A stretch of 64,000 bases of DNA from positions 1,550,001 through 1,614,000 of the forward strand of contig NW_027117343.1 of the NCBI RefSeq assembly GCF_038025025.1. The letters are read 5' to 3'. Source of the DNA: Phyllosticta citribraziliensis (lineage: Eukaryota). The notes under the pieces are model-generated. The model did not search any database, was not told where the DNA came from, and saw only the letters and a list, made by a program, of their open reading frames with translations. A program made the translations under genes and the position numbers. Shown piece by piece: positions 6,716-64,000 of this stretch (the stretch's first letter is position 1; each line of letters starts with the position of its first letter).

Positions 6716-9700
6716 TTTTATAGGCAGTAAGCTCTCCGCCACCTCGTGCGCCAGCCGCCCGTGTGATAGCCGCTCGACGTGGTCCCGCACATGATCGCCA
6801 GCGTACCGAGCGGGTGTAAAACAGCCGCTCTACTTCTTCGATTTGCAACAGCATCCACAACCTGTCCCTACATCGAAAAGGTCGCGAAGGCACACTCCAC
6901 TGCTGTGACTCGGCATTGCCTAAGAGGCCGGCAACATACTGTCGACGGCTGGCGCCCTTTTTGGTCAATCAGGCTCTCGGTGGACAGTCATAATTCTGCC
7001 CTGTCCCTACAATTGCACAATGACGGCGGCGAGCTTTATCATCCATCGACGGCGTAGAACGGAGTATGAGAGACAGAGAAGTGGGCAGCGGGAAAAAAGT
7101 ACGCATGGAATTACAGTGTCACTCATCTCTGAGAGTGTGCTCAGCGCGCAAGCCGGCAGTAGGAGTGAGGTATACCCATGGTCGCTGTGAAGGGAGCGTG
7201 CAAAGGCGCTGGCTCACAAAATGGAAAAGGAGTGAGGCACTGGAGAGGCTTTTATACCTACGACACCCCCGAGCACCGCCACTACTCATCTGCGACCATG
7301 TTGACAACGCAACCAAGCGCTGCCGAGCATGTGAACGCGAACTGCCTCCGGAAATTGACACAAAAGCGCGACCGCTGTCACTGCTCCCTTGTCAACTTGC
7401 CTCCGCCGCCGGTCCCCCAAAGCCGTGGCCAGCAAGAAGCGACTGGCTCAAAAGGGAGTGGCAGTCCGAAATCGCAGAACTTGTTGGCTCCTCGTTCTTC
7501 TCGGTTGTCCGAGGCTCCTGTTCGTTGTCACAGATGGAGCTGGCCTGGATTTGTGCCAATGGGAAAGAACTATCGGATTGTGCTAGTTGCTAACATAATT
7601 TTTAGACGTTTTCCGTCGTCGCCACAGAATCATGCTGATGGGTGCTGCCTCTACATCTCTCTTGCAAATCAATCGCTGACTTGGGAATCAGAGCAAGCGA
7701 GAACAGAAAACAGAAAACACAAGGCAGTAGACCTCGAAAGTGAAGCTCGGAGCCACCGGAAAGTGAAACCAAACTGCTGTCTGGTTGGTACGCCACAAGC
7801 TCGACAATGGCCTGGCGAAATGATTCTCGTAGCGAGGAAGAGGTGCTTTTATACTGGAGCGGTTGAATCACGAGCGTCAGGCAGCCACGCTGAGCACATG
7901 GATTTCTGGCGGCGATGTCCTTGCATGTGCCTCGCAGGGGTGCGTATAAATCGCGTCTCTGCTCTGCTTCCACCTTTTCAATCTATTTGCGTCTTTTGCA
8001 AAGAAGTGGTCTATCAGAAAACAACCTCCAGAAATTCTGACTTTCGAGGCTTGCGCTGTACGCTACAGAAGAGTCTTTTCCAGCGTTTCCTCTAGCCAAC
8101 GCTCACTTCAGCAAATAACTATATCGCGATCCACCATCAACCGAAAACAGCGGCGTGGAGCATCTACAACGAAGACCGACAACAACCACATCACGCAACG
8201 ACTCGACTGCAGATACCAAACCCACATCGAAATCGAAGAGATCGGAACGAGAGAAGAAACACACACAAGTGGAAGGTTTCGCAGAGCGTGACCGCGACAC
8301 GAAGTGGCATCTGACGGAATGGTACTTGCGTTTGCGATGTGTGCAAGGTGTCGCCCTACGAAGCCCCAAGAGAAGCAGATGAAGGCGTTTTATATCCCAA
8401 CGGCCCTAGATTCGATCAACAGCGACGCTCGGCACAGATCACAAGGACGGCGATCACGCGCTAGCTGACGAGGTGTCTGTGTGCTCTGCTTCTTGACTAT
8501 AAAAGCGCTGTACTGACCTCTGATTTGCGGCGAACTGTCCAACGTCTATGGATGCGCAGAAAGAGATATCACTGAGCAAGATAAAACACTGCGTTTCTAT
8601 GGAGACGGTCTTTGGTACGTTTTGGCTTTGCTTTTGCTGCTTCCCAGTCCTGTCTTCTCTCACAATTCCCAGCATCCAGAGTGTCGTCATTTTCCTCTAT
8701 TCAGGCGCAACGATGGACACCACCACCATCCCTTTCCTCCGTACACTAGTGTCCTTCATCACCACAAGGAATTCCTTCCACTCCAGCAGGGGCATGCAGA
8801 GCAACACACAGAACCACCAAGTCCGTATGTTCGATGTTGCCTTCATCCCTCCGCACAGTGTCAGTTGTCGAAAGGGAATGTGGAAGCAGTGCATCCATGC
8901 TCTGTGGTCGACGAGCTAGGCGGCGCGAGAGGTGGGCAGTATTTATACCCTAACAGCTCCTCACCAACGCACCTCTACCGGCTTCCGGGCCGGGCATCGA
9001 CGCATGTGGAATGGTGTGCATATGGAGCATTCGTCGCTGCCTGCGGAGGTCGGCAGTATAAATACGGCGCATGTGGGAAGCAGTTGTCGCTCACCAGCGG
9101 AGGCGGGAGGAAGAAGCGATTACTCTCCGTCACGAAAGACTTGCTTTTGCGTCCTCTACTTGCACAGCACCTTACTGGAGTCCTGGAAGTGCGGTCTGAC
9201 TTGAATTTTGGCGGGCCATTCTGTCACACAATTAGCCAACGCGTGGAATAATGACGTCTTTCTTCATTGTATTGAACTGCTGGACGACACTACTACGCCT
9301 ATATGAAGCGAGGACTTCGCTCTACCCACCACTGTGCTGGAAACGAAACGGAGAAAGCACAGCGAGAAAGTACCCGCTCGATGACACCATGGTCTCAAAA
9401 GGCAAGTGATGTCGAAGAACTTTGCTTGCCAGCAGCCTGCCCAAAAGTTGCGGATGCAAGAGAAGCAATCCAGGAGTAATGCTTCCCTTTTTATACCTGA
9501 CTGCAGCACGCCACAAGCCACAAGGCACTCTTTTGCCCGCAGTCACATGGATCCTTTACACTTCCCTTCGCGCGAATTGCGCGTGACAGATGACGACGCA
9601 CATACCAGCCCTGGACCCGACGGCGACTACAAAATCTCCGCCCGGAGGATCTGCTGCAACCCCAGAGTTCTCATCACTCTTTCGCGACGTATGGTCTCAG

Positions 9701-12700
9701 CTTGTCCGCTCCAACACTTGTGCCTTTTGTTTGGTACATTAACCCTGACTTCACTGTTAGAGTGAGCCTCCGCTTGAACCACGCCCCTTTCTCCTTGCGA
9801 GGAGTTCCGCCCATCACTTCCCTCCAGCTCAAGGCCGAGCTGGCCTACTCTACCAGATCGAAATTACGGACAACACTATCGCCCATCATGCCTCCAGCTC
9901 AGTCATCGAATCTACAACAATCTACGCGAAAGACACCGCGCAAACAACAGTTCGGACAAAGCAAGATGCACTGCAAAGAGTACTTGTGGTGTTTAGCACT
10001 TCATACGCCACAGGCAGGAGGTTTTAGGAGAGAAGAATTGCGACGAAGGAGCGCACCTTTATACCTAAAAGACCAGGTCGCGCACATGCACTAAACAGAG
10101 GTCTGCAACTAGTCGGAAACACACGTCCCGCGTAACTGACCGCGCAGAGAGCGACGCATGTGCCCTCAACTTCTTCTGCAGGTATAAAGGCACCGTTTGT
10201 TGCCTCCCTTTTCCACCTCCACAGGTTCTGTGACTCTCCACAGCTCTTGAGGCGCAAAACAAAGGAAGAATCCGACTTGTCTATTGTCGTCGCCCTTCCG
10301 ACAAATATAACTGGCTAGGTGGCTAGGAGGCACTTCTACAACAGTCACTTCAGTTTTTCTCTATCAATGCATGGTCCACGTTCGTCGAAATTTCCCAAAA
10401 TAGAGAGAGACTGACGTGCCTCAACAGGTCGAAGCGACAATAAAAAATATTGAACTCCGTAGGCGCTGGACACCATCCGCCAACGCCAGACCCTGCAATT
10501 TTCTACTCTCCTTGACGCAGGAAATGCCAGACAAGAGGCTCCCCACAAGTGTTCTCGAATATCCTGTGATCCCCCAGCAAAGTCTTCCGTGGTGGCATGT
10601 TGAATTGCCAAGTGGGGCACTGGCGTCCTGCAGATGAACGGAAGAGAGACATGAGAAAGAAGTCTGCTTTTATACCCGCAAGAATCCATCAATCACATGC
10701 GCTGCAACTCGCTCTATCACGCCAAAGACTGCCACATGCCACGCAATCAGCCGCGCGCAAGAGCGGTACGTCAAGGCTCCGCCACGGGTATAAAAGATCT
10801 GCCCCTGGAGCCCAATCCGCAATCCAACGAGTCTTTCCCGGTATTCCGCGACTCTTGGAGTTCAAGAGAAAGGGGGTTGACTTGCACCCACGCTGGCTAC
10901 TGACAATCTTACTTTGGCTTCTCGGGGGAGCTGTTTGTGGTAGCCATCCTCAGTTTCCCCTTCAGCAGCCCGCCCGCAGTCCACGACGTCAGCAAATTGA
11001 AATGACGGACAACACCGCTACGCTTCACTAATGCTTAACACCAGCATCGACGCCGTGGAATCCTCCCCATGCAATTCAAACAACAGTGAAGAAACAATGA
11101 CAGAAAAACAGACAAGAGAAACAAGTCTGATACCATAGCTTTAAGGGAGTTGCCCCTTTGATGGCCACACAGAAAGTAGAGAAGTAGGCAACGCAGGAGA
11201 AGCGGACTAGCTTTATACCTGCAGCCAGTCCTTGGGCACGCACGCACATACGCCATGACGCCCGCATCTAGCTAGTTGACGGCCACGTGTCTTGAAGCTA
11301 TCACGCGCTTGCGCTGTAGCCTCTGGCCACGCCTCTCAAGGCATAAAACTCTACTCTCTAACCCCCCTTTCCAGGTCGCTGCTCACACAGCCCTTCAACA
11401 ACAAAGCTTATGGACCCAGAAGAACACTACTTGTGCTTCGGAACGACGAACCAGGAATTATCGGCACTTTGGGGAGTTTCTTTGCGGTAATCCCTTCAAC
11501 CCCTTCAACAACGCGCAGTGACTGAAAACACCGCCACTGCGCTCCATCAACATCCATCATCACCAACCCACACCGCATCCTCCCCATCCCTCTCCTTCCC
11601 ACCTTTTCCCCCGCTCAAAGCCGACAGTAAAACTAGAAACAACACCAAGCAGAAAAGTAGGGCGTGTCGTCAAAATTTGTCCCGCAGGAGTAGTGTGGCT
11701 TGAAGTCTCATGGTGTACGTGTACCGCTGCCTTCGTCGACGACAGACCTACAGAAGAGAGACAGGGTCAACCAGGAGGGCTTTATACCCGCAGCGCGCAG
11801 CCCGCAGCCACGCTCCGCCCGTCACATGCGCCGTCAGTCACATGTCGCCAGGCCCCTGCGCGGTCTGTCGTGGGTATAAAATCGATTCTTTCAACGCTCT
11901 TGGACTGCAAGGAGTTCCTATCGGCCTGCGACGACCCTGAAAAAAACATTGACAAAAGAATCTACTTGCGTTCTGCAGCGACGCTATTCTTCACTCTTTG
12001 CGCGGTCGAGGCCTGCTGCGCGGCATTTCCAGTCCGAGTTTCTTCATCATTACACGCAAGCGACGGCGGCAGTACGTCGAAGTGATGATCAACGCCATCA
12101 GCCATTGACGCCACATAGTCCCCCTTTTACTCTCCCCTGCCCTAGCTGCAAAATCGATAGAAAGGGGAGTCGGCACGACAAACAAGTAATGTTGTTTGAT
12201 TACCTTTCCCAGAGTACTTCCCATGCTGAGAGTCTTCGTCGACCGCTGCCTCTGTCGGTAATGCAGTTGCGGGTTGAAAGTGAGGAGATACGCAGTGTTT
12301 TATACCAGCGGACGCTACCCATGACGCACATGCGCCGCGACCCCCACCACCTGCACTTCTTGGCAGCTGAAAGCCGCTGCGCTGGCACAGCCGCTCTCCT
12401 ATCCTCTCTGGCGGGCTATAAAACTGCATCTTCGCCCGCTCCACCAGCTTCTTTCGCCCGGCAGGCTGTGTCACTCTTGTCGACGCACGAACATGACATC
12501 ATCTCCGACTTCTGGCTTGTAGCTTCCAGAATCTGGGCAAGCTCTTACTTCGGCGGTGGGGAGGCGTGCCGCGATGTCCCTCCACCACCACTCTCCTTTC
12601 CTGTTCACCGATGCAGCGATAAGCTGCAGTGATGCATACCTACATCACCACCACTGAACAATCTCAACAATCTCAATATCATCACCCAATCTTGCCGCAC

Positions 12701-13054
12701 CACCCTCGCTCCTCCGCGCTCTTCAGAATGCAAGACAAGAAAAGCAAGAAAGTGGAAATGCCATCCATATGTAGCATGCACCACCAACGCAGTGTCCGTG
12801 TCTGGACCGCTGGTACCCACGGCGCCCCGGTGCTCCTGCCTGTCGATGAGAGATGTATTGTACAGTTCAAGCCCCGGCGGGAGAAGGGGGTGGGTGCTTT
12901 TATACCTCCACCGCTCACGCCCACTGGCAGCATGGGCAGTGCGCCAGGTTCACATGCCTGTCGGACTCCTTCACTCGTGATAGCGCCTGCATCAGAAGAC
13001 AGGCAGGCGCGCAGCAGGCAGGCGCGCAGCAGGTAGACAAGTATAAAAACACCC
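6716..13054. repeat. Array 1: 12 periodic units, each with an inverted TTTTATAC...GTATAAAA pair
   Basis: Left arms at ~6716, 7250, 7847, 8388, 8941, 9488, 10058, 10668, 11212, 11781, 12298, 12898 (spacing 517-610 bp). Right arms at ~6814, 7357 (degenerate), 7944, 8497, 9056, 9625 (degenerate), 10181, 10786, 11341, 11872, 12416, 13041. Confidence 0.85.
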
Positions 13055-45694: not shown

Positions 45695-45759
45695 GGATGG
45701 ATGGAAGGATTGATGGATTGATGGATTGATGGATTGATGGATTGATGGATTGATGGATG
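45695..45759. repeat. (GATGGATT)n microsatellite
   Basis: Octamer tandem run visible directly. Confidence 0.85.
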
Positions 45760-46269: not shown

Positions 46270-46441
46270 GGAAGGGAAAGGAAGGGAAGGGAAGGGAAGA
46301 GGAGATGGGATTGATGGATGGATGGATATACCTTGAGAATGAATACTAGGGATGGGCATCGCAGTTGTGGTAGTAGACGTAAGGGAAATAGGTAGTAGGA
46401 AGTAGGTAGTAGGTAGTAGGTAGTAGGTAGTAGGCAGTAGG
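46270..46441. repeat. (GGAAG)n and (GGTAGTA)n simple repeats
   Basis: Short tandem runs near 46270-46298 and 46391-46441. Confidence 0.75.
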
Positions 46442-47043: not shown

Positions 47044-48387
47044 TCATTTCGCCTCGGCTTTGCCGCCGCCCACGCTGACTTCTCCCACCTGCACCTCCCC
47101 CATCCCCACGTTCCCCACGCCCCCTCCCGCTCCGCCCGCGCCCCTCTTCTTGAGCACGTTCTCGATGAACGCCTCGCCCGCCTTGTACGACGACCGCACC
47201 AGCGGCCCGGACGCGCAGTACAGGAAGCCCAGCTCCAGCGCGCGCTGCCGCCACGTCTCGAAGACGGCGGGCGTGACGTATTCCTCGACTTTCATGTGCC
47301 GTTTTGTCGGCCGCATGTATTGGCCAAAGGTTATGACGTCGCAGCCGACGGCGCGGAGGGCTAAGGGGTGTGTCAGTTGAGAGGGGGAAGGGGGGATGTT
47401 GGGGAAGGGGGGGGACGCACCTCGCAGCGCGGCCCAGATCTGCTCCTCGCTCTCGCCCAGGCCCAGCATCATGCTCGTCTTGGTGATGACGTCCGGATTG
47501 GCCTGCTTCGCGCGCTCCAGCACGCGCAGGCTCTGCCGGAACCCGGCGCGGCGGTCGCGCACCATGGGCGTCAGCGCCTCAACCGTCTCGACGTTGTGCG
47601 CGTAGACGTCGAGCCCGCTGCGCGCCACCAGCCCCACCATGTCCAGGTCCCCGCCGTAGTCGCCCGTCAGCGCCTCGACCAGCATCGTCGGCGCCTTGTG
47701 CTTGATCTTGGAGATGGTCTCGGCGAAGTGCCGCGCGCCGCCGTCCGCCAGGTCGTCGCGGTCGACGCTCGTCAGCACCACGTAGCCCAGCCCCCAGCGC
47801 CGCAGCGCTTCGGCCGTGTTCTCCGGCTCGTGCGGGTCCAGCGGCGGCGGCCGGTTGCTCGTCTTGACGCTGCAGAACCGGCACCCGCGCGTGCACGTGT
47901 CGCCCATCAGCATGATGGTGGCCGTGGCGGCGTTCTTGTTGCCGCCGCCCCAGCAGTCGCTGATGTTGGGGCAGCGCGCCTCCTCGCACACCGTGTGCAG
48001 GTTCAGTCCCCTCAGGTCGTTCTTGATCCGCTTGAAGCTGTCGCTCGACGGGATGGGCGTCTTGAGCCACGACGGCAGCCGCGTGATTTTTTTCTTCTTG
48101 CCCTCCGGCCCCACCATGGCTGTCCGCAGCTCCAGCATCTCGTCCGTCGTCATGGGCTCCTCTTTTGCCGAGACGAAATCAGAGAGCGACGGCCCCGTGT
48201 TGAGTTTGTCGTGGAAGGCTGTCCGCGGCCGCGACACTTTCGCCGCGGGGGTCGACGACGCGGTGGGAGGCTCGGTGACGGCGGTGGCGAGGCCGCGGGC
48301 GAGGCGCCATTGTGCGGGGGCGCCGCGCGACGAGAGCGCCGACGCGGGCAGGCGGAGGCATTGCGAGCGTGGTATCGAGGAGGCCAT
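47044..48387 (-). CDS. LIP5: Mitochondrial lipoyl synthase (radical SAM)
   Basis: [13 protein letters not shown] and CTRGCRFC cluster motifs, [28 protein letters not shown], and a presequence-like N-terminus. In-frame 60-nt intron at 47420-47361. Confidence 0.97.
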
Positions 48388-48799
48388 TGTCGCTCAGGAC
48401 GTGGGTTGCGGCGGCGAGGTCGAGGCCAGTGTTGGGAAGAAGACTGCGCGGGCCATCAATCAAAGCGTCGGGTGGTCAATCGCGTCAGTTGTACCTTTCT
48501 TGGCGCTGTTATCTTATCAATCGCGCGGCTGGCGGCGGCCTGTCGTCTTTCCGATGTCGGTTCCGCGCGGCTCGCCGACGACACTCGACAACAACAGTCA
48601 TGCACATTCCACGCCTCGCAACTGGCTACGCGTCTGCCGTCGATAATTTTGATTCATTCTGCCGTCCAAAATCCCGCCTGCTCCAAGCCAATCGCCTTTT
48701 GTCCAATGTATGTATGGAAGAAAGTAAGGTAGGTAAGTGGGTAAGCTATTCAAAGGAAAGAAAGAGAAGAGGGATCCAAACCGCCCAGGATTAAGCTCG

Positions 48800-51503: not shown

Positions 51504-52055
51504 GGCCGAAGGCTGCGATTAACCTGAGGGAAGAAGGTGAGTAAAGGACTGGATAGGGATTCTGCAATGAGGCCTGCACGAGGAGCGGCGCAAAGTGGTA
51601 TATGAGGGGGGCGTAGGCTGAGAAAAATTCGAGGTGATGGAGGCAAACGGAGCGAATGGAATGACGCGCAGAAGTTCTTCTGTTTGACGCGCTGCGGACG
51701 CTCGCATGCAGGTGCCACCATCTGCATGCGCATGACAGCGGCAAGAACCTCTGGCTGTTGCACAGGACCACGGAGAGCAAAACGTACCTGTCGACGATGG
51801 AGCTTATCAGGAGACAAGCCTCAAGAGGCAAGCAAGGACGTGGGGATGGTGTTTTGGAAGGAGGGACTCGCAATTAATCGACGGTGATACCAGCAACCAA
51901 AGGACGAGCGCAAGGAGTGACGTGAGGTTGGTCAACGAGTGAGAGGCCGGGCGGCGCGCAAAAGGCAAAAACGGCGTAACAAAATTCGCACGGCTACAGA
52001 CGCATGGTGGACGATTGGGGTGGGGCTGAGGCTGAGGGGGCGTGTCGACGACGCG

Positions 52056-52063
52056 GTATATAA
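52056..52063 (-). promoter_or_regulatory. Candidate TATA element upstream of the glyoxal oxidase gene
   Basis: GTATATAA about 550 bp upstream of the ATG. Position only, not verified. Confidence 0.3.
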
Positions 52064-54433
52064 GGGGCCTTGGTGCATGCAAGCCACGGCGGCCCTGGAG
52101 GTTAGCAGAGCAGCGCCATGTAGCAGCCCTAGCAGCCAACAGCGCGGTAAGATGTGGTGTCGTGCGTCTTGTCAAATTTTCCCCAGCTCGCCGTCACTAT
52201 TTTGGGCCACCATGGCGGCGGCCAGGCCCAAAGGGGCAGCTGGTCGAGCAGTAGGCCAAATGCATCGTCGTAGGCTCTGGGGCCAAGCCACGCGCCTCGA
52301 AGCTTATGCGCTGGAGGGTTCAGGGGCTAGGTCGGGATAGGAAGAGTCGAGGTGGTCCAAATCTCGTTGTTGTTGACATGCAGCTTCTTCTCCTCCGTCA
52401 AAACATCACATATCCCGCAGGCCATCCATTTACGCGCGGGGCTGGGGCCAAGAGGCGCAAGCAATAAGGCTATTTTATGCTTATCTTGGAATGGAGCAGC
52501 GTTGGGGGCGTGCCCTCCATGTCTCGCTCTCTCGTGTCGTGTCTGGTTACACGTCGAAGCGAGACCAACCACGACGCTGCATCCCTCTCGCGCTGCACCC
52601 GCGAAGCGCCAGACCAACCTCCCCTCCCTCCTCTCCCTCTCGCTCTTCGCCGACGACTGCCAGCTCACCTCCGCCACATGCTACCTCTCTCCGCTCTGGC
52701 TTGTTCGTGTCCCCGCGGATCAACCTCTTCCTGTCTCCACATCCACTCGACTTGTTAGCGGCACGTCAGGCTAACCTCTCCAGGCATCGCATCTCCAAAA
52801 TCCAGTCATCTTTGGGACCCAAAAGGCCCCGGCCAGTCCAACACGAGCCACTGCTCCCCGCCGCGCGCGTGCGTCAACTTCGACGCGCCCCTGCGCCGGC
52901 TTCTGCCTTGAGGTACAACTTTGTACCTGCGGCCCTCTCCGCGTCTGCCGTCGTCACTCGTCCTCCATCCATGCACGTGCCTTGATGCGCGGACGGGCCC
53001 GCTGTATCTGATCTCACTGCGCATCCCAAATGCTCGTCTCGTTCGACTCGCTTCTTTCTGTCGAGACAGCGGGGCGCGGAGAATGAGGATCCCGAACCCG
53101 GTTTTTGTGGGCGTGTGGCCGGATCCAGACTCACGATTTGGAGCCCCCCCAAGAAGAAATGGCCCTTTTTTCGACTCGAGCCCATCTCGCGGCATCACTC
53201 AGCAAACCCCGCGCCTATCCATCGTGAGCAAAAGCCCCAGAGTCTCATCAAATTCCACCAAGTCCAAGGTCGCCACCCAGTCACCCAACCAGCCGTTCGG
53301 CCGACCGGTTGGCCATCCGGCACTTGCGGCGCCTCCCTCGGCTTGGCCTCCTTTCAGGGACAGCAAAAAGGCGGTTGCTCCCTTCGACACGGCGACTCCA
53401 TCGCGTCTACCCGTACCCGCCGCCGCTCGTGTCCGCATTTAGCACGCACCCCTGCCGGCGATCACCCAACCGCATCACGGTGCTGGGGGACGGCCCAGGT
53501 ACCAGCGCCTCGCCTTACCGAACCGAACCGAGTCGCTGCGCTTCGCGTGGCAGACTGGCAGTCGGTCGACTGGCAGGTACGTCCGTCCCTGGCGGATCCG
53601 CATCCGCGGACGGCGCCCGTCCGTCGCCTCGTTCGTTCCCGGAACACGCGGCATCCTGCCCGTCAGACGTGGCTCTCGCATCGCCTGGGTCGGACAGGTC
53701 GCTTGCTCACGATGGATTGGAGTCAGGCACCGCGGGTGGAGGCTGTGGGGAGAAGGGTAACTAACCGAGCGACTTCACGAGGGCCCGACATGGCCCGTAT
53801 TTCGGGATACGATAGGCGGTGGTTCGATGGCGTCGGCACTCGATGCGACAACAGTGAGAAAAGAGATTGTTTTGCGGTTACTGCAGTGCTCACGCTTCGC
53901 GCATGGTAGCATTGCACAGGCACATCCATCCTTCTCGTTCACCTCATCCTTCGTGGGCGCCTGTCGGTGACGAGAAGCGGGGTATAGAAAAAGAAAGAGA
54001 CTTGGTTGCAGCACGGGAGGAAGGCTGTTGCACTGTTTCGCGTTGATGGGCTGACCGACGGATAGACTGACAAGGACGGGTGAAATGGCTGCCCTCTTGC
54101 TCTCTATATGCCTGGCGTCCCGCCAGACTTTCGCAATGTAAGTTCTGTCCCTTTCTGTTCCGTCCGCATCATCACACGAAGAGAAATGCCACCGTCACTG
54201 TGTCTCTACGTTGTCGCCAAACATTGTTTGTAACCGCACCGCTCCGGACCCCGGCCGTATAGAGAGAGAAGAAAAAAAAGAGGAAGCGATTGACACACCC
54301 GCCGCGAGGAGCGGCAAGTGTGAAATTCCCCGATCACCGTTGTTGAAGCATTGCCTGCATACTGGTCTTTGGCCAGGAGCAACGTCGCGCCAGTGCTTGG
54401 AGTTGCTCATACCACGGAAGACGGCGAGGCGTC

Positions 54434-57400
54434 TTTTATACTTACAGGTTGGAGCAGCGGAGTATCATGTGCGCGTCCGACGCTTGTGATGCCCGTGACG
54501 CCTGTGACGTCTCGCTCCGGCAGCCGGTGCGGCGGGTATAAAACCCAGACTCTGTCCTGCTCTCCGACACCATCCAGCACTTCCAGACTGTCTGTGGGCG
54601 CCTCCTGAGATCGTGAAGAAAAAGTACTTTTGGGTCTTTTGTTTCCTTGACAAGTGGAACGTTCCAGTTGTACTGTGGCTTGTGCTGTCCTCTCTCTTCT
54701 CTTTTCTATTTGGGCCGCTGAATCGATTCCACCATGCCCGCACGCAGCTTACCATCATTTCTGTCCAACAAGGTAGAACAGCAATGCGTGTAAACGCTAC
54801 CTACGTCCCACCTTGACTGACTGAGGAAAAAGGAGACAATTCCAGGAGCGCAGCGACAACCGGGCAGCATTCTCCTTTGGCCTGTAAGCCCGCGATTCAG
54901 CAGCCCATCCAGCGTGTATAAAATCCACTGCCCTTGAACCTCGTCTCCTCGGCATCTACAGCAGCTCCAGCACTCTGCGTCTCCTCTCGGGCAAAGGAAG
55001 GCTCGCATGGTCCATTTGTGTCTGCCTCCCGGTTCCTCAACACATGACTGCGCCCTGTGCTGTTTGCCCCGACGGACTAGCCGTTCCCTTATTTCTTCTG
55101 CGTCCCTCCGCTCATCAACGCCTAGCTTGAGTCCAGCATTCCTGCAAATAGGTCGTCTGCGCTCTCTCGCCACGACGCGGAATAGCATCACACACAAACG
55201 CGGCGTGTTCTGTACCTCCGCCACCCGGAGACTAACTGGGGCAAAAGGAGACAAGTCAAAGAGCGCAGAAAAAGCACAACCCAGCAGTCCAACCAACGAC
55301 AAGGCGGCAGCCGCGAAGTCCACACGCGGTCGATGTGTTTCTGTGGCTGTAGAAAGGACGCCCTGGAGTGAGTTTTGCAAGCGATGAAGCGGTGTCTTTT
55401 ATACATGCGAGAGAGAGTGGAAGCCAGGGGAGGGCGGTCGCGTGGGCAGTCATCGCCAGTGACGCTCGTGATTCAGGCGCTCGTCTCGGTGCGTATAAAA
55501 TCCACTGTTCCTTCGTCTCCTCAGTGCCTCAGCAATTGCAGCAGTCCACAGCCTTCTCTCGAAGCTCAAGACGGCAAAAACTTCACTCTTCGCCTTGCTC
55601 TGCTTGTCGTGTTACACTGGCCGCCATACCTTATTTCTTTTGTGTCGCTCTGCATGTTGATGCTCTAATTTAAATGTAGTATTCTAGCGTGTGGGTTCTC
55701 TTCATTTTCGGGCTGCGATGTGGAACAGCAATGTGTGAAGATGCTGCATGTTCTGTACTGTACCTGCGTCAACTCCAATTTGCCAACAGAAACACAAAAG
55801 AGTCCGGGACCGCCGCAACAAACGACAAGTCCTTCCTCTCTAACACGGGCTACAAAAGCCAACTTGCAATCGCTTTCTGTGGCTCTGACAGCACAGGAAG
55901 CCCTGGAGAGAAGTTTGTGAGCAAGGAAGCGCTTTTTTTTATACCCTGGAGCAAGAGGGGAACCGGGGTGAGGGCGGTAGCGTAGGCAATCGTCGCGCGT
56001 GGTGCTCGCGATGCTCATGACGCCCGTGATTCAGGGGCTCAGTGCGTACAAAAGTCTGGTCTTTTCTCCCTCCGTCACTCGACATCTTCGACGGCTGCGA
56101 CACTGCGCGGCGTCCTTTGAAGAAGAAGAAAGTTGAAACTAGGGGTTTTCTCCCTTCCCGATACTACAACAACCTCACTGCACCTTTTTGGTCTGTCTGT
56201 CTGCTTGGTCGTGCATTCATTCTTTTCCTCAAGTCCGCCACGCAGAATTGCGCCCCTCACTTCACCATCCTATGACAACGCAACTCCGCATCATCTCTGC
56301 CTCTCTATGACACCCATCAAACAGCCCAAAAGCTGCCAACACGGCGCCGGTGCAATGCCTTACTAAGATCCAAGCGAAACCAAGCAGCGCACGCAAAAAC
56401 CCGCGCCACAGTACGTCAGTTCTACCTCTGCGATCTGACACAGTTCGTCGAAAGTGTACAGGAAGCCTGTCGTTTGTGCCGGAAGTATGCAGCAGAGAAG
56501 ACGCAGCAGCGCCGCTTTTATCCTCCACAGTTACGCACGGAGCGTGCGTCACGTGTGAATGCTCCCCATGCGTGCGCGTGACTGCCGATTGCGCCGTGCA
56601 GTGTGAGGAGGATAAAAGACGCCGTTTGCTGCGGCCTGCTACTGACTTCCAGGATGTGTACCTGCGCTCAACTGCGCAATTTCAACTTTAACAATGGCGA
56701 CGTACTGGTGCTTGTTTGGCCTGGTGAGCTTGATTTTGGCAAGGGAAGGCGGGGGGTTTGTCGTGGTGAGGATTGGGATAGTGTGGAGAAAGATAAGGTG
56801 AGTGGTGGTGTTTGCCATCTTTGTGGACCGGTGCTGGGGTCTGTCGTTTTGGGGCCATGGTATCGCAGACGCGCGATATTCCGTGGACGAGGAAGAGAGT
56901 CGGGTTCAGAGGAGCGAGCGAACCATCCACAAACCCGAGTCTCGGATTCTGCGATCGATGTCGCAAAGCCAAGTGGATTGGGATCCTGGTTTTCTTTCCT
57001 GTACCCAGTCGCTCTATGCATGTCGAACTGCGTCGATGAGTGAAGCCTCTGGTGACTTTTATACCAGCGACGCCGCACTTCTCCCTTTTCGGTCGACGAG
57101 CGCGCGTGACAGAGCGCACCCGGGTATAAAACCTCCTTGTCGGACTGACTGCCTTTGCATCCTGCAATCCAGCCAGCTTACTCTGCCCGCCGCTTCAGGT
57201 GTCAACGTACTTCTGGTGGTGCGGCCGCCACGGTTTTGAGAACGAAGACATTGGTTTTGGTCTTGTGCGCTGGTGATGATATTCCTCCCTGGCTTTTATC
57301 TTTAGTTTCCCGTGCTCAATAGCAGCGGTCGTTGTGGGATTTCGTCGACCGTCTCCGTCATTCTTCAGCGCTACTCCGCATCACCGCTCCGCAATCACAG

Positions 57401-60400
57401 CAGACATTCTCCAGTTCAACGGTTCTTCTGCTGTCTCACACCATCCAGAACTTCTACTCCAGCCACCAGTCGCCAGTAAGAAGAGTGCAAAAAACCAGTA
57501 ATTCTAAGGAAGGCCCGGCGCAACACAGTCAGTATTGGTCATATATTCCATTCCTTAGAATCTCGTGAAACTGAGGACAAAACTGCTGACGCAAAGTAGA
57601 AACGCAGAAGAGCGCGCTTTTATACCTCCCCTCCCTCCCCAGCCCTAGCTCCGGCGACAGCCTAGCAGCGCACGGCCGCACATGACAGCCCCCTTTTCGC
57701 TTTCTGACATCTGACTATCTTCCTAGGCGGGGAGCAGTATAAAACCCCCTCTTCCGCCGTACTTTTCTATCCTAAAAATCAACGACAGCCCTGCCGGCGC
57801 CCTTGCATTAGCTTCCCAAGACAACACCATGCAGACTTTTGGGAATGTCTTTGGCTTGCAGAGTTCCAGGTCTTCCTGTTCCAGTCTACTATCCGTCTTC
57901 ATTGAACTGCGATGCCGCGCTGCGTCATTCCTCTGCGATCGCGACTGGCCTTTTTTCCCGTCTTGGAATCTCAGTCGAGGTGGATCATCTTTGCCGGCGC
58001 AAGAGAAAGCAGCGAGTGTTGAGTCTTGACAATGTTCTATACAATGTTTCCCCCTTGTTATTAGAGGCCTGGGAACTGCTTGCAGTGAGTAGAAGCGAAG
58101 GAGGGAGAGAAGAGCTTTTATACCTTCCCCCCCTGACTATGGCGCAGGCGGGAAGCGGCAAATAAACAGCTCAGCGTCGCACGTGTCAACCAATTCGCTT
58201 TCCCACTTGCGATCGACCCGGGCAGTGGTGGGTATAAAATCCCCCTTCTCGCCCAGCTCTTCGACTCGACAACGGAGCTTCCGCGGCAAAGATTTGCATT
58301 GCACGCACGTATATCGATCGTCCCTGTCTCGTCCTTCGACTGCTGGTCCTTTTGTGGAGGAGAGGAGATACAGACTTGAAACTTTCCAGCCTTCCATCTT
58401 TCCACCCAAGTTCTTCGTTGACATGGCCCGCCATTGTCCCACGTTGCTGGAGCGCAACATCAACACCATGCCTCCTATCCTCGTTTTCATTGAACTGACA
58501 CAACAAGGCGTGGACTGCGCACCAAACCGACCGCAAAACAAGTAGGACCTTGTTGCTGGACTGGCACGAAGCCGCGAGTCAAAATCTTTGGCATTTCTGT
58601 CTCTGAAGCCGTTTGAGTCGACAGGTCAATTGTCGATGAGAAAGAAGGTGCAGTGCGAAGACGACGAGAGTTTCATACCTCGCTGCAATCCGGCCTCGGA
58701 TCAAATTCGTTCGACTTCGGCGTGTGAGCGGCACTCTATCGATCAATCTGTCGATCCAGCATCCAGCGTCGGCTCAGCGGACGGGTATTTAAACCTCGCT
58801 TGCCTCCCTCCTCGCCGTTCACTCCAAAGCAAGACAGATTGCACCATATGCCGGTCATCCACTGCCCTTAGGTCATCATTTCTGGTGACTACGCACTTGC
58901 TTGTCTTCACCGTCCTCTTCTAGTGTTTAACTTTTTCTTCTCGTTCTCTTGCCGACACATCCCCTGTATAGCAGTTCAAGTCTTTCACTTAATCCTTCAC
59001 TATCTAACATCATCAGCGGAAGCGCGACTCCCGCAATCATCAACAATGGAAGATGACATATGCGCTTGTCGTTGTTGTCACAGTATCTAGCTGAGCCCCT
59101 GAGCCCCTGAATTCTTTTGGAATGACTGACTGGCTGAATGCGCAAAAGGCGAGCACCGACTCCAAAAGCCAGCATGAGAGAACGGGTACTGGCTGTGGAA
59201 CCGCCAGTCGATGTCTTCGCGTGGGGGAATTTGCGCAGCTCTCTGCAAGCCAGGCGAGGTGTTGATGAAAAGAGGTCGCCGTTGACAGACTGACAGCGGG
59301 TTTTTATACTTGCGCCTCGTCAGAAGCAAAAGCACGGATGCCGTCAGGAGGCAGCGCAGGCAGTAGCATGTGGGTTCAACGTACACGTGTCCCTGACAGA
59401 CCTGCTGACAAGCCGGCATTTCAGAGGGTAGCAAGGCGAGGTATAAAAGCCCCCCTTTCTCTCACTCACCTTTATTCTGCAGAAGAGGACTTGCTTCCGC
59501 ACCACCCAAGTCGCCAGCAGTGCACTTGCTACTAGTCTTACTTCCCCTCCTGCTGTTGTAGAATTTAAAAACTCCATCGGCGGTAATGTTGCTCACTATC
59601 ATCCCACGACTTTGACGCAGGACACAACGCTGGCAACTGTCGTCGCAGCGCCTCTCTTGACTTGCCAGAACCCAGTCCAAGCGCGCGAACAGCAAACCAA
59701 GTAGGCCATTTCCCATATTTCTGGACACCGCAGAGCCGCGAGTGCTTTTTCTGCCTGCGGAAGTTCCTGTAGTCATCTGTGGGTCTACACAGAACGCCCG
59801 AATAGCAACGAGTCAAGGAGAGGGAGTGAAGCCTTTTATACCTCTCCGCAACCCCTGTGTCAGGAGTCTGGCGGGAGAGGTATAAAACCCCAGCCCTTTT
59901 CTTCAGCTCCCCTTTCTTTCCGCAGGGGGAGGCTTGCGTCTGCGCCGCGCAAGCTTCATCAACATCTACGCATTCCACTGTAATTATTCCTGCGCTTTTT
60001 CCGGCGCTGGGTGCATCCATTGCCTCTTCTTTCACGCCCTCTCCGCGTTATGGAGGGTTGGCTGACGAGCGTTATTGATGGTAGTGCTGCGCGCCGTCAT
60101 GCGCCTGTAATGTAGGGGAGAATGACACCCTAGCACAACCGCGCGAGCGGGAAACAAGTCGGTGTGGTTGATGATCACTGGACATCGCAGAGCCGCCAGT
60201 ATGTCGTTTGACGAGGATTTCCAGTAGTCTGCACGCCTGCGCAGAGTGTTTGAACAGGAACAAGCTGTGTAGGAGGGAGAAGAGCCTTTTGTACCCCCTT
60301 GCACCTCCGTAATGAGTGAGTGCGGCAGGCAGGCAGGCAGGCAGGGTATAAAACCCCCGCCCCTTCTCTTCTGCTCAGCTTTATCTTGCAACAAGATGAT

Positions 60401-61650
60401 TAGCCTGCAGGAATAAGGTTGCGGAGAACAACCAGTTCATTTACTACTTGTTTCTGTCCCTGCTCTTTTTCTGCTACCTACTTGAGGAGTTGATTTCGCA
60501 GACCAGCGACGTCGCTGTCTACTGCATCGTCAGTGCAAATGCTGTGCGCCATCATCTCGCGCCTTTGACGTAGGAAATCAACGCTGATGCTGACGATGCC
60601 ATCGCAGTCGCAGCGTCTGCCTTAACACACAACACAACACCCCAGCCCAACCGGAACGACACGAACAGCAAACCAAGTCGATAGTCGATCGCCTCCTCTC
60701 CGGACACCACAGACCCACCAGTCAGATAGACCTTATGAACTCTGAATTGCTCGCTGGTGCTCGTTGTGGAAGAGAAAGAGAGAGGATCCAGTGCCCGGAG
60801 CGGCGCTTAAATACCTCGTGGCAGCGACGGAATCGATGCAAAAGCACATGTCGGCCTTTTTGAATGGCCAATTGACTGACTGACCAATTGACTGACCAGG
60901 CACAAGCCAACAAGCCGACCAACCGGCACTCTGGCGACTGGAGCGGGCAAGGTATAAAACCCCCAATCCCCCCCACCCCCTTCTTCCCGGAGGCCGACAA
61001 GAGTGCGTCTACGTCTGCGCAAAACCCCCAGAAGAGAACAAATTGAAGAGGAAAGATACGGTGTTTTTTTCTTCTTTTCCTTCTTTCTTGGCGTTCCGTT
61101 TGTCCACTTCCTCGCGTCTCCTCGCCGCCTCCTCGCCGTCTTTGCGGGTTCTGCCTGTCAAATGTCAATTGTCAAATGTCAAACATCAGCAGCAGAAACA
61201 ATGCTATATGTGGCCATCATTGCGGTTTGATGAAGCAGATCGCCGGCGTCCTGTAGTGTGTTCCGTAGTCAAAGTCGCGCTGTGTCGACTCAGCGCAACG
61301 CCGGCACAACGTAACGCAACGCAAGTACGCAATCGAACGCCTCTCCCGCCCCAATACCAACGCCAGTGGCATCCCACGCAGATGTCGAGACATTGTCGCT
61401 TCCTCAGAAGAAGAGCGCAAGGTATCTACTTCCACTGAGTGAGTGAGTGAGTAGAGAAGCCGCTTTTATACCTGCGGAGCTGGAGATGCCACATGCCATC
61501 CACTCACAGTCTCGTGGTTGACTCGCGCGGTAGTCTGGGCGCGTGGGAGCGTGGCATGTGCGCGACATGTGCTACTAATTCCGTGCGGTGTCGTCTCCTC
61601 AGCCAATGAGCTGGAAACGGCTCGTGAGTGAGTGAGTGAGGAGGTATAAC
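54434..61650. repeat. Array 2: ~14 periodic units, each with an inverted TTTTATAC...GTATAAAA pair
   Basis: Left/right arms at 54434/54536, (none)/54916, 55397/55493, 55937/56046, 56516/56611, 57057/57123, 57618/57737, 58116/58231, 58671/58784, 59302/59441, 59834/59880, 60287/60344, 60807/60951 and 61464/61643. Mean period is ~550 bp. Confidence 0.88.
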
Positions 61651-64000
61651 ACCCTCCCTCCTTTCCTGCAACCACTGCTCTCTCATCATCAACAGCGGCA
61701 GCTTGCACCACAAAACCTAGGAGCCAAGTGACTGTCCACCAATCGCGTGTACAAGGCATCTTGACTTTTTTCTGGTTGCTGCTGTTGCCGAATTTTCCCC
61801 ATCTATTCCAACTGACCTTTTCTTCATTTTCGTCTCCGCGCGCAGCTTTGAGATTTCTCAGAGCTGCGCCGTCGACACGGCGGAAGTGTGTGCGGACGAT
61901 GATGCAGCTGCTCATTGCGCGCTGACGCTACCCTTCGCCATCATGCTGTCAAAATGACGCCGCGCCGTATTTTCGCCCGCCGCACTTCACAGTCAGAAAA
62001 GGAGGGGACGGGAAGAAAGAGTGAGAGAGTGCAAGAAGGGAAGATAGGAGACGAGGAGAAGAAACAAAACAAGACAAGAAAAGAAGAGGAAGAGAGAGCA
62101 GGAAGGGCTGGAAAGAGAAAAACGCACCCCACGAGTTTACGTACGCGCATCTGCACATCTTTACCGAACAGGCACGACAGATCTGCCGTGTCACCGTGGC
62201 AGTGTTCTGGCTGACTGGCTCAGCCCTGCCCTGCGCCAAGCAAGCCTGTGTTCTCACCTCACGAGACGAGCAAACCACTTACCTGCCACTCACCTGCCAA
62301 GGAACTGCTGGATGGGTGGCGCACAAGCATCGCGTCACTCGCGCGACTCTGCTTTCCGGCACACCACGAGGACGGAAGGTTTGCTGAGAAGTGGCGGGCA
62401 GGAAAGGCTGCTCGTCTGCCGTTGCGCGACAATGCCCAGTACCCCGTCGGAATACTGTAGAAAGAGGTGAGAGGGCGCGCTTTATGTACTCCGCAGCATG
62501 TGTACTGTACAACGGCGATTCAGCCAGCCCAGCACGGATGGGTAGAGTTGTCAGATGGATGGATGCATGGACGCGGCGCGCTGGCACGCACGCACGCGAG
62601 GAAGCGAAGACTCGGCACGAGAAGAGTCTATGCAGCGTGCGGTGCATGCGCTGGCGGATGAACATGTAGGAGCATGAATCGAGCAAGGCAAGGCGAGTCG
62701 CAGGCCCGCTGCGTCGTCTGCCGCAATCCCAAAGAGAGGACGGCGTATCCGTCCGTCACAGTAACCAGTGCAGACAGAGAAAGAGAGTAAGGGACAGCTC
62801 AAAGCAGCAAGCCGACGACGCATCTTGCCGCCATTCCTCGACGACCAGCAGGAGGATGGCAGTGCCATCCGACAGAGACACGACCAAGTCATCCACCTCT
62901 TGCCAGCTTTGACAGCAGCAACCCGCGAAAACACTCATCCACGCACGCGGAGGAGCGCGACGAATAGGGCCGAAGGCGCGCCCGTGGGGTCTGTGTTGGG
63001 GTCCGGGGGAAACGCCACAGGCCGTATCTCGTGCGGCGGTAGTGGGTCCGGGGGTGAGTGAGAGAAAGGTGGGAGAAGCAGAGAGGGATGGAAAAGCAGA
63101 CCGACAGAGAAGAAAAGAACGAAAAAGACGACGAGGTCAAGGACGAAGCAAGCAACGCGCGGCACCGACAGAGAACAGACACGCGCAACAAACCACGGCG
63201 GCAAAGTGAAGTGGCCATCCACCAGACGAGTCGAGGCGAGGCGAGGTTGCTTCAACCATTGCCGATGGCCGCCTGGGAAATGGTCTCCGAGTCGGCAGGC
63301 AGGTAGGAGACTCGAAAAAGCCCCCATCCGCGCGTTACCCCCCCGTTGGCAGTCAGGGTCCGCGGCGCCGTGTGGCGCTTTTTGCGGCGCCTTTCAGCCT
63401 GGAGAAAGGCACCGCGCGGCTGGGGTCTAGGCCGGGAGGCGCTGCGCGCAGACATTCAGGCTGAATCGTGTGGGTAGAAAGGGGGATGGCCGACGGAGCA
63501 ATGGGTGCCGTGGCTGGCGTGCTGTTGAGAAGACAAACAGAGAGGCGGAAGAGGAAGAGAAAGTTGGTGTTGGCGGAGCTGGTGGATTACCGGTTACGGT
63601 AGTGCAGCCGACCGAAGCAGCGACGAAGTATAACAACAGGGCGAGTCCACGGGGCTGGCTGGGTCGTCAGCTGGGCAGCAGCTTGGTGTTCCAGGTTGGT
63701 GATGGAGATGCAGCAGTGCGGCTCGGTGTGGTGTTCCCCCGTTGGCGTCTGGCTGCAGGGAATAGAGTTCGTTTGAGGGGCCCCATGGCACCTACGGACC
63801 TTACCCCACGACGCGCTAGGCCACCCCATCACACACACACACCCGCACACCAAGCCCAGCATTCCTCCATCGACCTGACGGCCCTCTCACCGCCGCCTAT
63901 GTCCTGTCGCTCTTATATAACACAATGTGCTCCCCTGCCGTTGGCCCCGTCTCCTCGCTCGACTCGACTCCCTGCTTGCTTCTGCGCTCTGTTCAGGTGC

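Follow-up and report, generated by a model that had tools for sequence, protein, structure and literature searches.

Two arrays of paired, outward-facing TATA boxes with noncoding spacers in Phyllosticta citribraziliensis: candidate tandem bidirectional promoters

Two arrays of promoter-like units were found in the 64-kb stretch of Phyllosticta citribraziliensis DNA analysed here (the window). A glyoxal oxidase in the flank agrees with an origin in a Phyllosticta-type dothideomycete. A complete unit consists of a GC-rich core of 38-172 bp between two outward-facing boxes, GG-GTATAAAA-CC. We give about an even chance to the reading that the arrays are tandem bidirectional Pol II promoters which drive short, convergent, overlapping noncoding RNAs, with selection on the architecture and not on the product. 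The arrays share one orientation and enclose a block of 41 kb:

6716..13048, no strand: array 1, 12 units with the grammar and strand polarity of array 2, period 562±29 bp
54434..61651, no strand: array 2, 14 units resembling promoters, repeating every 544 bp on average

The gap that holds array 1 measures 8 kb and is bounded by convergent 3' ends; the array's downstream neighbour is the 3' end of a convergent bZIP gene and not a + strand gene. Because the genomes of filamentous fungi are compact, 6-7 kb of gene-free DNA made up of about 26 strong-looking promoter pairs is unexpected.

The initial annotation had described a second array of about 14 inverted TATA-like units, and 14 were counted in array 2. 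Exact copies of TTTTATAC/GTATAAAA on both strands number 28 in 64 kb compared to 0.35 expected (0 of 100 shuffles reached 28), and all 28 lie within 7250-13048 or 54434-61471, so that the exact motif is confined to the two arrays. When one mismatch was allowed, 63 matches were found in the window, 50 of them in the 13.7 kb of both arrays. The hexamer TATAAA occurs 39 times in the arrays versus 5 times in the remaining 50.3 kb. Together the arrays contain 47 arms (24 left, 23 right), 28 with the exact GTATAAAA and 19 with one mismatch. Unit centres in array 2 are 376-672 bp apart (mean 544, sd 75) and left arms in array 1 are 518-611 bp apart (mean 562, sd 29); motif and period are retained in both arrays, as had been noted. 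Pair spans in array 2 measured 54-188 bp, against an earlier estimate of about 54-187 bp. Nine of the 14 units of array 2 have both arms within one mismatch and at least one arm exact. One unit carries a single mismatch in each arm, and the two changes are complementary (TTTTATCC at 56516 and GGATAAAA at 56610). Two have an arm with 2 mismatches (GTATTTAA at 58785 and TTAAATAC at 60807), one is a right arm alone (54916), and one has a 1-mismatch right arm (GTATAACA at 61644). The units of array 2 are:

54434..54543, no strand: unit 1, TTTTATAC at 54434-54441, GTATAAAA at 54536-54543, E-box CATGTG at 54466-54471
54916..54923, + strand: unit 2, right arm GTATAAAA only
55397..55500, no strand: unit 3, both arms exact, core 73% identical to the unit 4 core
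55937..56053, no strand: unit 4, TTTTATAC and GTACAAAA
56516..56617, no strand: unit 5, TTTTATCC and GGATAAAA, one variant in both arms, E-box CACGTG at 56550-56555
57057..57131, no strand: unit 6, both arms exact, 59-bp core
57618..57744, no strand: unit 7, exact in both arms, with E-box CACATG at 57679-57684
58116..58239, no strand: unit 8, exact in both arms, with E-box CACGTG at 58180-58185
58671..58792, no strand: unit 9, degenerate, TTTCATAC at 58671-58678, GTATTTAA at 58785-58792
59302..59448, no strand: unit 10, exact in both arms, with two E-boxes (59367-59372, 59384-59389)
59834..59887, no strand: unit 11, both arms exact, 38-bp core
60287..60353, no strand: unit 12, TTTTGTAC and GTATAAAA, core mostly a (GGCA)n microsatellite
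60807..60959, no strand: unit 13, TTAAATAC (2 mismatches) and GTATAAAA, E-box at 60845-60850
61464..61651, no strand: unit 14, TTTTATAC and GTATAACA, three E-boxes at 61490-61571

Comparison of unit 2 with the next spacer suggests that its left arm and core were deleted. On direct reading of the sequence the arms of unit 5 lie within an inverted repeat of about 30 nt, and this unit folds strongly (z -3.3 to -5.4).

The conserved grammar extends beyond the 8-mer. All arms, left and right, share the oriented consensus g.gGG-GTATAAAA-(g/c)CC and are followed by a pyrimidine-rich stretch of about 40 nt. The purine run on the left and C/T run on the right that had been noted are real: over the 30 nt from +10 to +39 of the oriented arms the pyrimidine share is 74%, falling to about 50% beyond. 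The cores have a GC content of 63% compared to 53.5% for the arrays. CACATG was found 18 times in the cores (1.6 expected) and CACGTG 4 times (0.5 expected); one or the other E-box is present in 15 of 21 cores of both arrays, giving 22 sites versus about 2 expected. CCAAT boxes were not enriched in the cores (2 vs. 3.7 expected). Left and right arms are equally well conserved. Within a unit the arms tend to agree in their TATA variant (identity 0.935 vs. 0.899, permutation p = 0.0024); outside the 8-mer, arms are no more similar within units than between units. Common to both arms and both arrays are the pyrimidine tract, the core E-box, and the ACTTG element with its A-to-T switch described below.

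These features were compared with TATA-type Pol II core promoters of Pezizomycotina. A TATA box of the form TATAAA(A) is present in the 47 arms, the sense strand is pyrimidine-rich, and the E-boxes provide an upstream activator site. In Aspergillus nidulans promoters, according to the accessible text of PMC4046813, TATA lies 30-45 nt upstream of the site at which transcription starts (TSS), the sense strand is pyrimidine-rich from -50 to +25, CA stands at the TSS, and CACGTG peaks near -70. Judged by sequence, the arm grammar matches these mapped core promoters in its TATA box, its pyrimidine-rich tract leading to the putative start site and its CACGTG-type E-box a few tens of bases upstream. 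Unlike the A. nidulans promoters of that text, those of the arrays form inverted promoter-like pairs (26 within 14 kb), none of them with a protein-coding gene attached.

The ACTTG element marks a point farther downstream. Of 28 copies in the 47 modules, 25 are found between 80 and 159 nt downstream of the TATA (about 4 expected). At ACTTG the A content drops from about 0.3 to 0.1 and T climbs to 0.47; this switch from A-rich to T-rich sequence, 80-160 nt past the box, is seen with both arm types in both arrays. The sites in array 2 are:

59698..59702, - strand: example of ACTTG, seen as CAAGT on the + strand, which lies 139 nt downstream of the unit 11 left TATA
54315, 55252, 55826, 56970, 58539, 60155, 60674 and 61322, - strand: equivalent ACTTG sites
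58374, 58895, 59524, 60446 and 60480, + strand: ACTTG sites

On the + strand, CAAGT stands at a set distance to the left of 10 of 13 left arms. Read on the opposite strand, the element runs from A-rich sequence through CA/AGT into pyrimidine-rich sequence, and in this respect it resembles a cleavage/poly(A) site. We know of no established promoter role for ACTTG. Both arrays have more C than G on the + strand, and the CATCA:TGATG ratio on that strand is 33:13 in the arrays (16:5 and 17:8) versus 49:52 elsewhere; therefore, the two directions of the array are not equivalent. CATCA-type words are enriched on the + strand in the spacer centres (about 8 vs. 1 expected each), where they come after a T-rich, A-poor tract.

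Divergence of the spacers has gone beyond what can be aligned. In blastn, arrays 1 and 2 matched each other over 23 nt at best, as expected from the earlier remark that the spacers could not be aligned to array 1, and comparison of array 2 with itself gave only 4 weak matches, all between neighbouring units. The period-3 signal in the arrays (median 0.76-1.0) is like that in the flanks at 52000-54400 and 61700-64000 (0.89-0.99); controls in the window gave 6-10 for conserved genes and about 2 for two NLR ORFs. No ORF family was found among 338 stop-to-stop ORFs, and array ORFs of 305 aa and 224 aa had no homologue among 5.8 billion proteins. The arrays thus show neither the codon periodicity nor the conserved ORFs or homologues of a protein-coding family, and the absence of recognisable genes reported in the initial annotation holds as far as tested. 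Rfam gave 0 matches in the whole window at the gathering threshold and one chance-level match in 54200-62000 at E up to 5; ARAGORN found 0 tRNAs. Folding of modules compared to shuffles (mean z -0.09, n=47) and of units compared to flank shuffles (mean z -0.19, 42 folds) revealed no excess structure. Known structured RNAs (snoRNA, snRNA, tRNA, miRNA-like hairpin) were rejected, with no family match and no folding beyond shuffles. Small genes of the Pol III type-3 kind, with TATA and a T-run terminator, were also rejected: 13 of 47 modules lack any T4 run within 260 nt, and those present are at scattered positions. Since the grammar is kept while the spacer sequence has diverged (47 arms retain the 8-mer at 0-1 mismatch), the data agree with the earlier proposal of selection on architecture rather than on sequence.

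Array 2 is covered by RNA contigs from two unstranded runs (X1 and X2), which by themselves cannot show starts, ends or strand. An X1 contig matches 52784-56254 with 0 differing letters and 0 gaps except one intron, so the sequence is not an assembly artefact. Contigs cover the array units, and introns with GT..AG (+) and CT..AC (-) ends show that both strands are transcribed and spliced:

54773..54832, + strand: intron in spacer 1, GT..AG, branch CTGAC, both runs; joint 54769/54830, cut +3
58603..58678, - strand: intron from X1 contigs; joint 58602/58679, ends CT..AC

The left TATA of unit 9, in its mutated form, is the 5' splice site (GTATGA) of the - strand intron. On the + strand, donors 54137 and 54772 are joined to the single acceptor 54833, and one of these introns is 695 nt long. 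Unit 1 falls within this alternative intron (54138-54832). The X1 contig of 52784-56254 traverses four units without a gap, which indicates RNA reading through from upstream, at the least. Units 6-11 have low RNA depth (5-15) compared to 240 and more than 700 on either side, and from about 60000 through the right flank the depth reaches 700-3000. An X2 contig matches up to 61324, ending exactly at CAA/GT, and continues with at least 255 letters absent from 44001-64000; the start of an X2 contig, at 60673, precedes CAAGT by one base.

In the reading that we favor, a unit would be a short GC-rich core, usually with a bHLH-type E-box (CACATG/CACGTG), between outward TATA boxes GG-GTATAAAA-CC, and the start sites would lie 30-45 nt downstream of each TATA, in the pyrimidine-rich stretch of about 40 nt. 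Because the arms point outward, each spacer of about 450 bp lies between two facing promoters. It would be transcribed from both sides into overlapping RNAs of about 300 nt that encode nothing conserved, and ACTTG probably sets the end of one of the two RNAs. As promoter grammar, spacing and composition are kept and the RNA sequence is not, what is selected is likely paired convergent transcription itself, as an act or an architecture, which may work through sense/antisense dsRNA or transcriptional interference and not through a product. We infer that the arms fire as promoters, where the RNAs end, and a role in dsRNA formation, interference or promoter choice. Of the candidate functions in the initial annotation, putative convergent-transcription ncRNA cassettes remain the best reading, given the promoter match, the outward arms and the RNA from both strands. 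An artificial convergent-promoter construct in Fusarium oxysporum gave sense and antisense RNA and silencing, as reported in the accessible text of PMC3733888. More tentatively, the arrays might be a device of convergent-promoter cassettes, with the promoter/terminator frame under selection and inserts of about 230 bp free to vary as sense/antisense pairs, serving as a dsRNA battery or as exclusive toggles, perhaps at many loci in Phyllosticta and its relatives; we think this wider proposal doubtful.

Several observations sit uneasily with bidirectional promoters. Divergent promoters predict silent cores between them, whereas one contig runs unbroken over four units. The contig ends observed (54109, 56254, 60673 and 61211) are off the predicted start sites, and depth is low over units 6-11. 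The ACTTG element, with no established promoter role, the lack of CCAAT enrichment and the + strand polarity also count against the reading.

Among the rivals, an array of alternative promoters with variable first exons fared best, and we still regard it as unlikely. Right arms would start + strand RNAs spliced to distal common exons or running into the right flank, and left arms would yield only upstream antisense by-products, a scheme that follows promoter choice in clustered protocadherins. This would account for the + strand polarity common to both arrays, the two donors joined to acceptor 54833, the CAAGT left of the left arms, the X2 contig that leaves the array at 61324, and the climb in depth across the right flank. 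However, no common acceptor or constant exon turned up, coding signal is absent from the right flank, and array 1 is followed by a convergent bZIP 3' end instead of a + strand gene. CAA/GTNNNN fits the fungal 5' splice consensus poorly, in spacer 2 this motif aligns to sequence past the acceptor of the spacer 1 intron, no excess of intron-like candidates was found (0 and 5 on the + strand vs. about 3 in shuffles), and conservation is as good in the left arms as in the right.

A chromatin-organising role of the arrays is possible. As a full explanation, it is less likely again that the arrays are DNA-level elements with no productive transcripts, whose paired TATA/E-box sites bind TBP or another factor and act as a boundary, in nucleosome phasing or as a factor sink. 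A length of 550 bp is close to 3 nucleosomes. The period stays regular despite sequence turnover, the arrays flank the 41-kb block in one orientation, array 1 lies between convergent 3' ends where no promoter is needed, the arms of one unit share their TATA variant, and the middle units are low in RNA. Against this, the region is transcribed, and the grammar reaches 160 nt past each TATA, as expected for transcribed sequence.

The unbroken contig over four units would also be explained if the array were segmented in reverse, a quite improbable reading in which promoters lie in the spacer centres (T-rich tract, then CATCA), ACTTG marks poly(A) sites, and the units are transcribed bodies or bidirectional terminators. 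The tract and the enriched CATCA-type words recall the pyrimidine-then-CA start grammar in the accessible text of PMC4046813, the X2 contig begins one base before CAAGT, and the A-rich to T-rich switch is similar to cleavage sites. This segmentation gives no account of why inverted TATA pairs and E-boxes are the best-conserved feature, and unit-spanning RNAs carry no selected hairpin (mean z -0.19). In addition, at the glyoxal oxidase 3' end (48640), the only genuine one in view, an A-rich tract lies upstream and ACTTG is lacking.

It is more improbable still that the spacers hold fast-evolving genes for very small proteins (peptides of about 10-60 aa) in divergent pairs like silkmoth chorion genes. 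The layout is like that of paired genes around a short common promoter, translation of the T-rich, A-poor tract past ACTTG would give hydrophobic stretches, the first ATG lies at +74 to +85 in several left modules, and a 9-10 codon ORF is kept in three neighbouring spacers. In those three spacers, however, conservation continues beyond the stop codon; there is no period-3 signal, ORF lengths are at chance level, ORF positions are not shared, and the ORFs are dissimilar to each other, two having no database homologue. No CaaX-type pheromone ORFs were found, and ATG in the leaders is no rarer than its base permutations.

Mobile or recombination cassettes, either MITE-like with terminal inverted repeats or integron-like with attC sites, are very improbable. 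The 8-10 nt inverted arms around 38-172 bp and the inverted repeat of unit 5 would fit such elements; the cores are unlike between units except two neighbours, the arms beyond the 8-mer are no more alike within units than between them, spacing is regular, and the grammar carries on outside the arms. A MITE/TIR transposon was rejected on the unlike interiors and arm flanks, and no target-site duplications were seen on reading the sequence. The integron analogy of the initial annotation, which rests on short imperfect inverted repeats between variable inserts of a few hundred bases, did not survive: this is eukaryotic DNA, the spacers hold no ORF cassettes, the arms are TATA boxes with promoter flanks whose complementarity reflects only the promoter consensus, and no integrase or other recombinase and no transposase was found among 16 window ORFs scanned against Pfam. 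An old tandem satellite in neutral decay would explain the tandem array, regular period and diverged units, and is just as hard to credit because 28 exact and 19 one-mismatch 8-mers, with several more features at fixed offsets, would not survive by chance beside unalignable spacers. Satellite DNA with homogeneous units was also rejected, the units being barely alignable.

Parts of the arrangement have parallels elsewhere. In clustered protocadherin genes, tandem variable exons each have a conserved promoter element and are used by promoter choice; the arrays likewise have tandem units in one orientation with a conserved promoter element and a variable transcribed part, but neither constant exons nor coding variable ones were found in them. 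In C. elegans 21U-RNA/piRNA clusters each small transcription unit has its own upstream motif, and conserved per-unit motifs, unconserved products and genomic clustering are shared with the arrays. Kingdom, motif, RNA pathway and unit size (about 550 bp vs. tens of bp) differ, so this is a functional analogy only. Neurospora disiRNA loci are sense/antisense loci with convergent transcription. To our knowledge, natural fungal convergent loci are single gene pairs with no shared promoter grammar, while the array repeats one stereotyped cassette 12-14 times. Promoters facing each other across a few hundred bases and giving complementary RNAs are common to the proposed spacers, the disiRNA loci and, in the accessible text of PMC3733888, the F. 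oxysporum constructs. The silkmoth chorion locus, as presented in the accessible text of PMC4639761, also repeats divergent pairs with a short common promoter head to tail; it encodes proteins in homologous units, whereas the array units are noncoding and their transcribed parts unalignable. No description of such promoter-pair arrays was found in the open-access literature searched, and one may exist in print.

If the modules are silent, TATA/E-box arrays acting on DNA or chromatin would be as unfamiliar as arrays that fire. If they fire, the arrays would be a natural set of convergent transcription units selected for architecture alone. They would then offer a tractable system for fungal sense/antisense transcription (dsRNA/RNAi, interference, chromatin) and a source of compact bidirectional promoters.

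Counting both strands, the 64-kb window contains 28 copies of the motif TTTTATAC, where 0.35 would be expected, and shuffled sequences never came near this number. All exact copies lie within 7250-13048 or 54434-61471. When up to one mismatch was allowed, 63 matches to TTTTATAC were found in the window, of which the arrays, 13.7 kb together, account for 50, and the hexamer TATAAA was counted 39 times within the arrays vs. five times in the other 50.3 kb. The arms, outward-facing TATA-like motifs on either side of a GC-rich core, group into 14 units in array 2 (54434-61651), with a pair span of 54-188 bp and a mean unit spacing of 544 bp (sd 75). Array 1 (6716-13048) contains 12 units at 562±29 bp. 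The initial annotation had described arrays of inverted units, and its coordinates, counts and dimensions held when motif counts, unit spans and spacings were recomputed. An RNA contig shows zero differences from 52784-56254, one intron aside; therefore the sequence did not arise as an artefact of assembly. Several arms and the array ends adjoin tetranucleotide microsatellites, among them (GGCA)n and (GTGA)n (60325-60345, 61436-61452, 61625-61643 and 13400-13600). Blastn between the flanks of arrays 1 and 2, as a test for paralogous flanks, gave no match.

To build an arm consensus, every arm was turned to the orientation GTATAAAA. The consensus g.gGG-GTATAAAA-(g/c)CC is common to left and right arms and is followed downstream by about 30 nt at 74% pyrimidine and then by about 50%. 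The purine run and C/T run reported earlier are real, and are one pyrimidine tract viewed on two strands. GC content is 63% in the cores as compared to 53.5% for the arrays overall. E-boxes are abundant in the cores (CACATG, 18 vs. 1.6 expected; CACGTG, 4 vs. 0.5 expected), and 15 of 21 cores contain at least one. TGACG is modestly enriched (15 vs. 6.5 expected), and CCAAT is not enriched in the cores (2 vs. 3.7 expected). According to PMC4046813, mapped promoters of Aspergillus nidulans start 30-45 nt downstream of TATA with CA at the start, have a sense strand rich in pyrimidines between -50 and +25, and show a CACGTG peak near -70. This is the same grammar as in the array units. Because of this likeness, the complete unit resembles, judged by its sequence, a bidirectional TATA-type Pol II promoter, and the spacers between neighbouring units would lie between facing promoters. 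We give about an even chance to the reading that the arrays are tandem bidirectional Pol II promoters which drive short, convergent, overlapping non-coding RNAs, with the element ACTTG fixing the RNA ends and the architecture being selected. The alternatives rank by weight as promoter choice, chromatin element, reverse segmentation and peptides, followed by cassettes and satellite.

Two sequencing runs of the same organism, X1 and X2, both cover the stretch. They represent RNA, because canonical introns of neighbouring genes are visible in the contigs. The introns found in array 2 are listed here.

54773-54832, + strand: intron of 60 nt, GT..AG with a CTGAC branch, in both RNA runs
54138-54832, + strand: alternative intron of 695 nt with a canonical GTAAGT donor, in run X2; contains unit 1
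58603-58678, - strand: intron in RNA contigs; its donor GTATGA is the mutated left TATA of unit 9

The introns on + and - strands mean that array 2 is transcribed on both strands. One X1 contig spans four units without a gap. Contig depth is low at units 6-11, where low cover is not evidence, and high from about 60000 rightward, although depth is not an expression level. Contig ends lie off the predicted start sites; contigs do not mark starts, ends or strand, and for this reason the firing of the arms as promoters is something we infer. The alternative that the array is a variable-first-exon or promoter-choice array on the + strand is unlikely, though the strongest of the rival readings. The two + strand introns have a common acceptor. 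Slightly less likely is a chromatin element that acts at the DNA level. Several other features of the contigs were observed. By the standard of filamentous fungi, an intron of 695 nt is very long. Unit 9 departs from GTATAAAA in its left TATA by a single A-to-G change (GTATGAAA), and this altered TATA is the one used as a 5' splice site in RNA contigs. RNA contigs extend over both flanks of array 2 (52000-54400 and 61700-64000), which have no coding signal; on the right, depth is high (about 1300-3000 in X1) and there are long tracts rich in purines at about 61980-63200. The (GGCA)n run gives rise to chimeric-looking joints in RNA contigs.

The word ACTTG (CAAGT on the opposite strand) occurs 28 times in the 47 modules, each module being one oriented arm with its downstream sequence. 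In 25 cases it is located 80-159 nt downstream of TATA, where about 4 are expected. The composition switches sharply at ACTTG, with A falling from about 0.3 to about 0.1 and T rising up to 0.47. After TATA, a pyrimidine-rich block (+8 to +58) is followed by an A-richer block (+58 to +108) and a T-rich, A-poor block (+108 to +158), and this order is common to left and right arms in both arrays. The distances from TATA to ACTTG in left and right arms (medians 125 vs. 93) are not significantly different (p=0.19). Two discontinuities in X2 contigs coincide with the CAAGT form: one contig starts at 60673, one base before CAAGT (60674-60678), and another matches to 61324, at CAA|GT (61322-61326), and continues with at least 255 letters absent from 44001-64000. 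CATCA-type words are abundant in the spacer centres on the + strand only, with a CATCA:TGATG ratio of 16:5 in one array and 17:8 in the other vs. 49:52 elsewhere in the window. Thus the units are polar, and arrays 1 and 2 are direct repeats of one architecture. A reverse segmentation, in which promoters sit in the spacer centres where these words lie, is rather improbable, and the promoter-like grammar is found at the arms. The 10-mer TTGACGYAGG, which may be a further bZIP-type site, is exact at 10512, 55763 (-), 59612 and 60565, all in array spacers; at one mismatch it occurs 11 times vs. 7.9 expected.

We examined whether the arrays encode proteins or structured RNAs. The period-3 signal of the arrays does not rise above noise (median 0.76-1.0), where conserved genes reach 6-10 and the NLRs about 2. 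The 338 array ORFs formed no family, first-ATG ORFs downstream of the arms were not consistent, and array ORFs of 305 aa and 224 aa had no homologue of near length among 5.8 billion proteins. CaaX pheromone-like ORFs gave five small matches in the arrays vs. 0-3 in controls, none convincing. An apparent avoidance of upstream ATG was rejected, since the ATG depletion downstream of right arms vanished against permutations of the ATG bases. Tiny peptide genes are, with these results, an improbable explanation. Rfam at the gathering threshold gave no match in the window, and on 54200-62000 the sole match was a chance-level lncRNA (E 0.16). ARAGORN found no tRNAs. Module folds were on par with shuffles (mean z -0.09, n=47); this lack of fold signal, together with 13 of 47 modules having no T4 run, ruled against Pol III or shRNA-like genes. 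A selected hairpin across the unit, formed by pairing of purine and pyrimidine runs, was also rejected (mean z -0.72 vs. full shuffles and -0.19 vs. flank shuffles); the sole outliers were units 12898/13041 and 56516/56610. Intron-like candidates were not enriched in the arrays. As to targets of a putative siRNA, the spacers match nothing of 18 nt or longer elsewhere in the window.

The host is a dothideomycete of the Botryosphaeriales. The window contains genes for two NACHT/NPHP3_N NLRs, an adaptin/coatomer subunit, lipoyl synthase, a bZIP factor, a phosducin-like protein and a chitin-binding glyoxal oxidase, whose ORF has 100% identity to an NCBI protein named for Phyllosticta citribraziliensis and 88% and 83% identity to proteins of two other Phyllosticta species; the placement of the host follows from these matches. 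Loci beside or between the arrays are as follows.

2591-6196, + strand: 1201-aa ORF with no Pfam match, left neighbour of array 1
14507-15535, - strand: bZIP factor gene, right neighbour of array 1
28309-31047 and 33843-36446, + strand: tandem NACHT/NPHP3_N NLR-type genes, within the 41-kb block separating the arrays
48640-51900, - strand: glyoxal oxidase carrying a chitin-binding domain, separated from array 2 by 2.5 kb and directed away

Array 1 occupies the 8-kb gap (6196-14507) between the 3' ends of the convergent 1201-aa ORF and bZIP gene; a gap between two convergent 3' ends normally needs no promoter. In both runs, contig depth is by far the highest in the bins where the glyoxal oxidase lies (about 40000-77000 in X1).

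Matching TATA variants were found in both arms of three units: GTATAAAT in 8941/9056, GTATAAAG in 10057/10182 and GGATAAAA in 56516/56610. The 8-mer arm identity is 0.935 within units vs. 0.899 between units (permutation p=0.0024), a difference that rests on these three units; arm flanks are not more alike within than between units. From so few units, matched variants are a hint that the two arms may be tuned to equal promoter strength, converted one by the other, or read by a factor that recognises a palindrome. An inverted repeat of about 30 nt is present in unit 56516/56610, and this unit folds strongly (z about -3.3 to -5.4). Spacers show four weak matches among themselves in array 2, and the longest matches between arrays are 23 nt or less. 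Mobile or integron-like cassettes are very improbable. A neutral old satellite is equally so and cannot account for the arrays, because 28 arms are exact and 19 are one base off and several features are kept at fixed offsets, amid spacers diverged past alignment.

A metagenome scan with CTTTTATACC-N80-110-GGTATAAAA gave at least 119 loci; those among the matches listed were mostly low-GC chance matches, with no array. Nothing similar was found in the open-access literature searched on fungal promoter arrays and convergent transcription or on the species. For a filamentous ascomycete, production of sense plus antisense RNA by convergent promoters, with silencing, is shown only for an artificial construct in Fusarium oxysporum (PMC3733888). 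The parts of the arrays are ordinary fungal promoter elements and their arrangement is unusual: 26 pairs of inverted arms follow a strict period, no genes are attached to them, the downstream grammar is kept and the products are not conserved. In the bidirectional-promoter reading, the tandem units would produce short convergent RNAs that overlap, ACTTG would set their ends, and the architecture would be what selection acts on.
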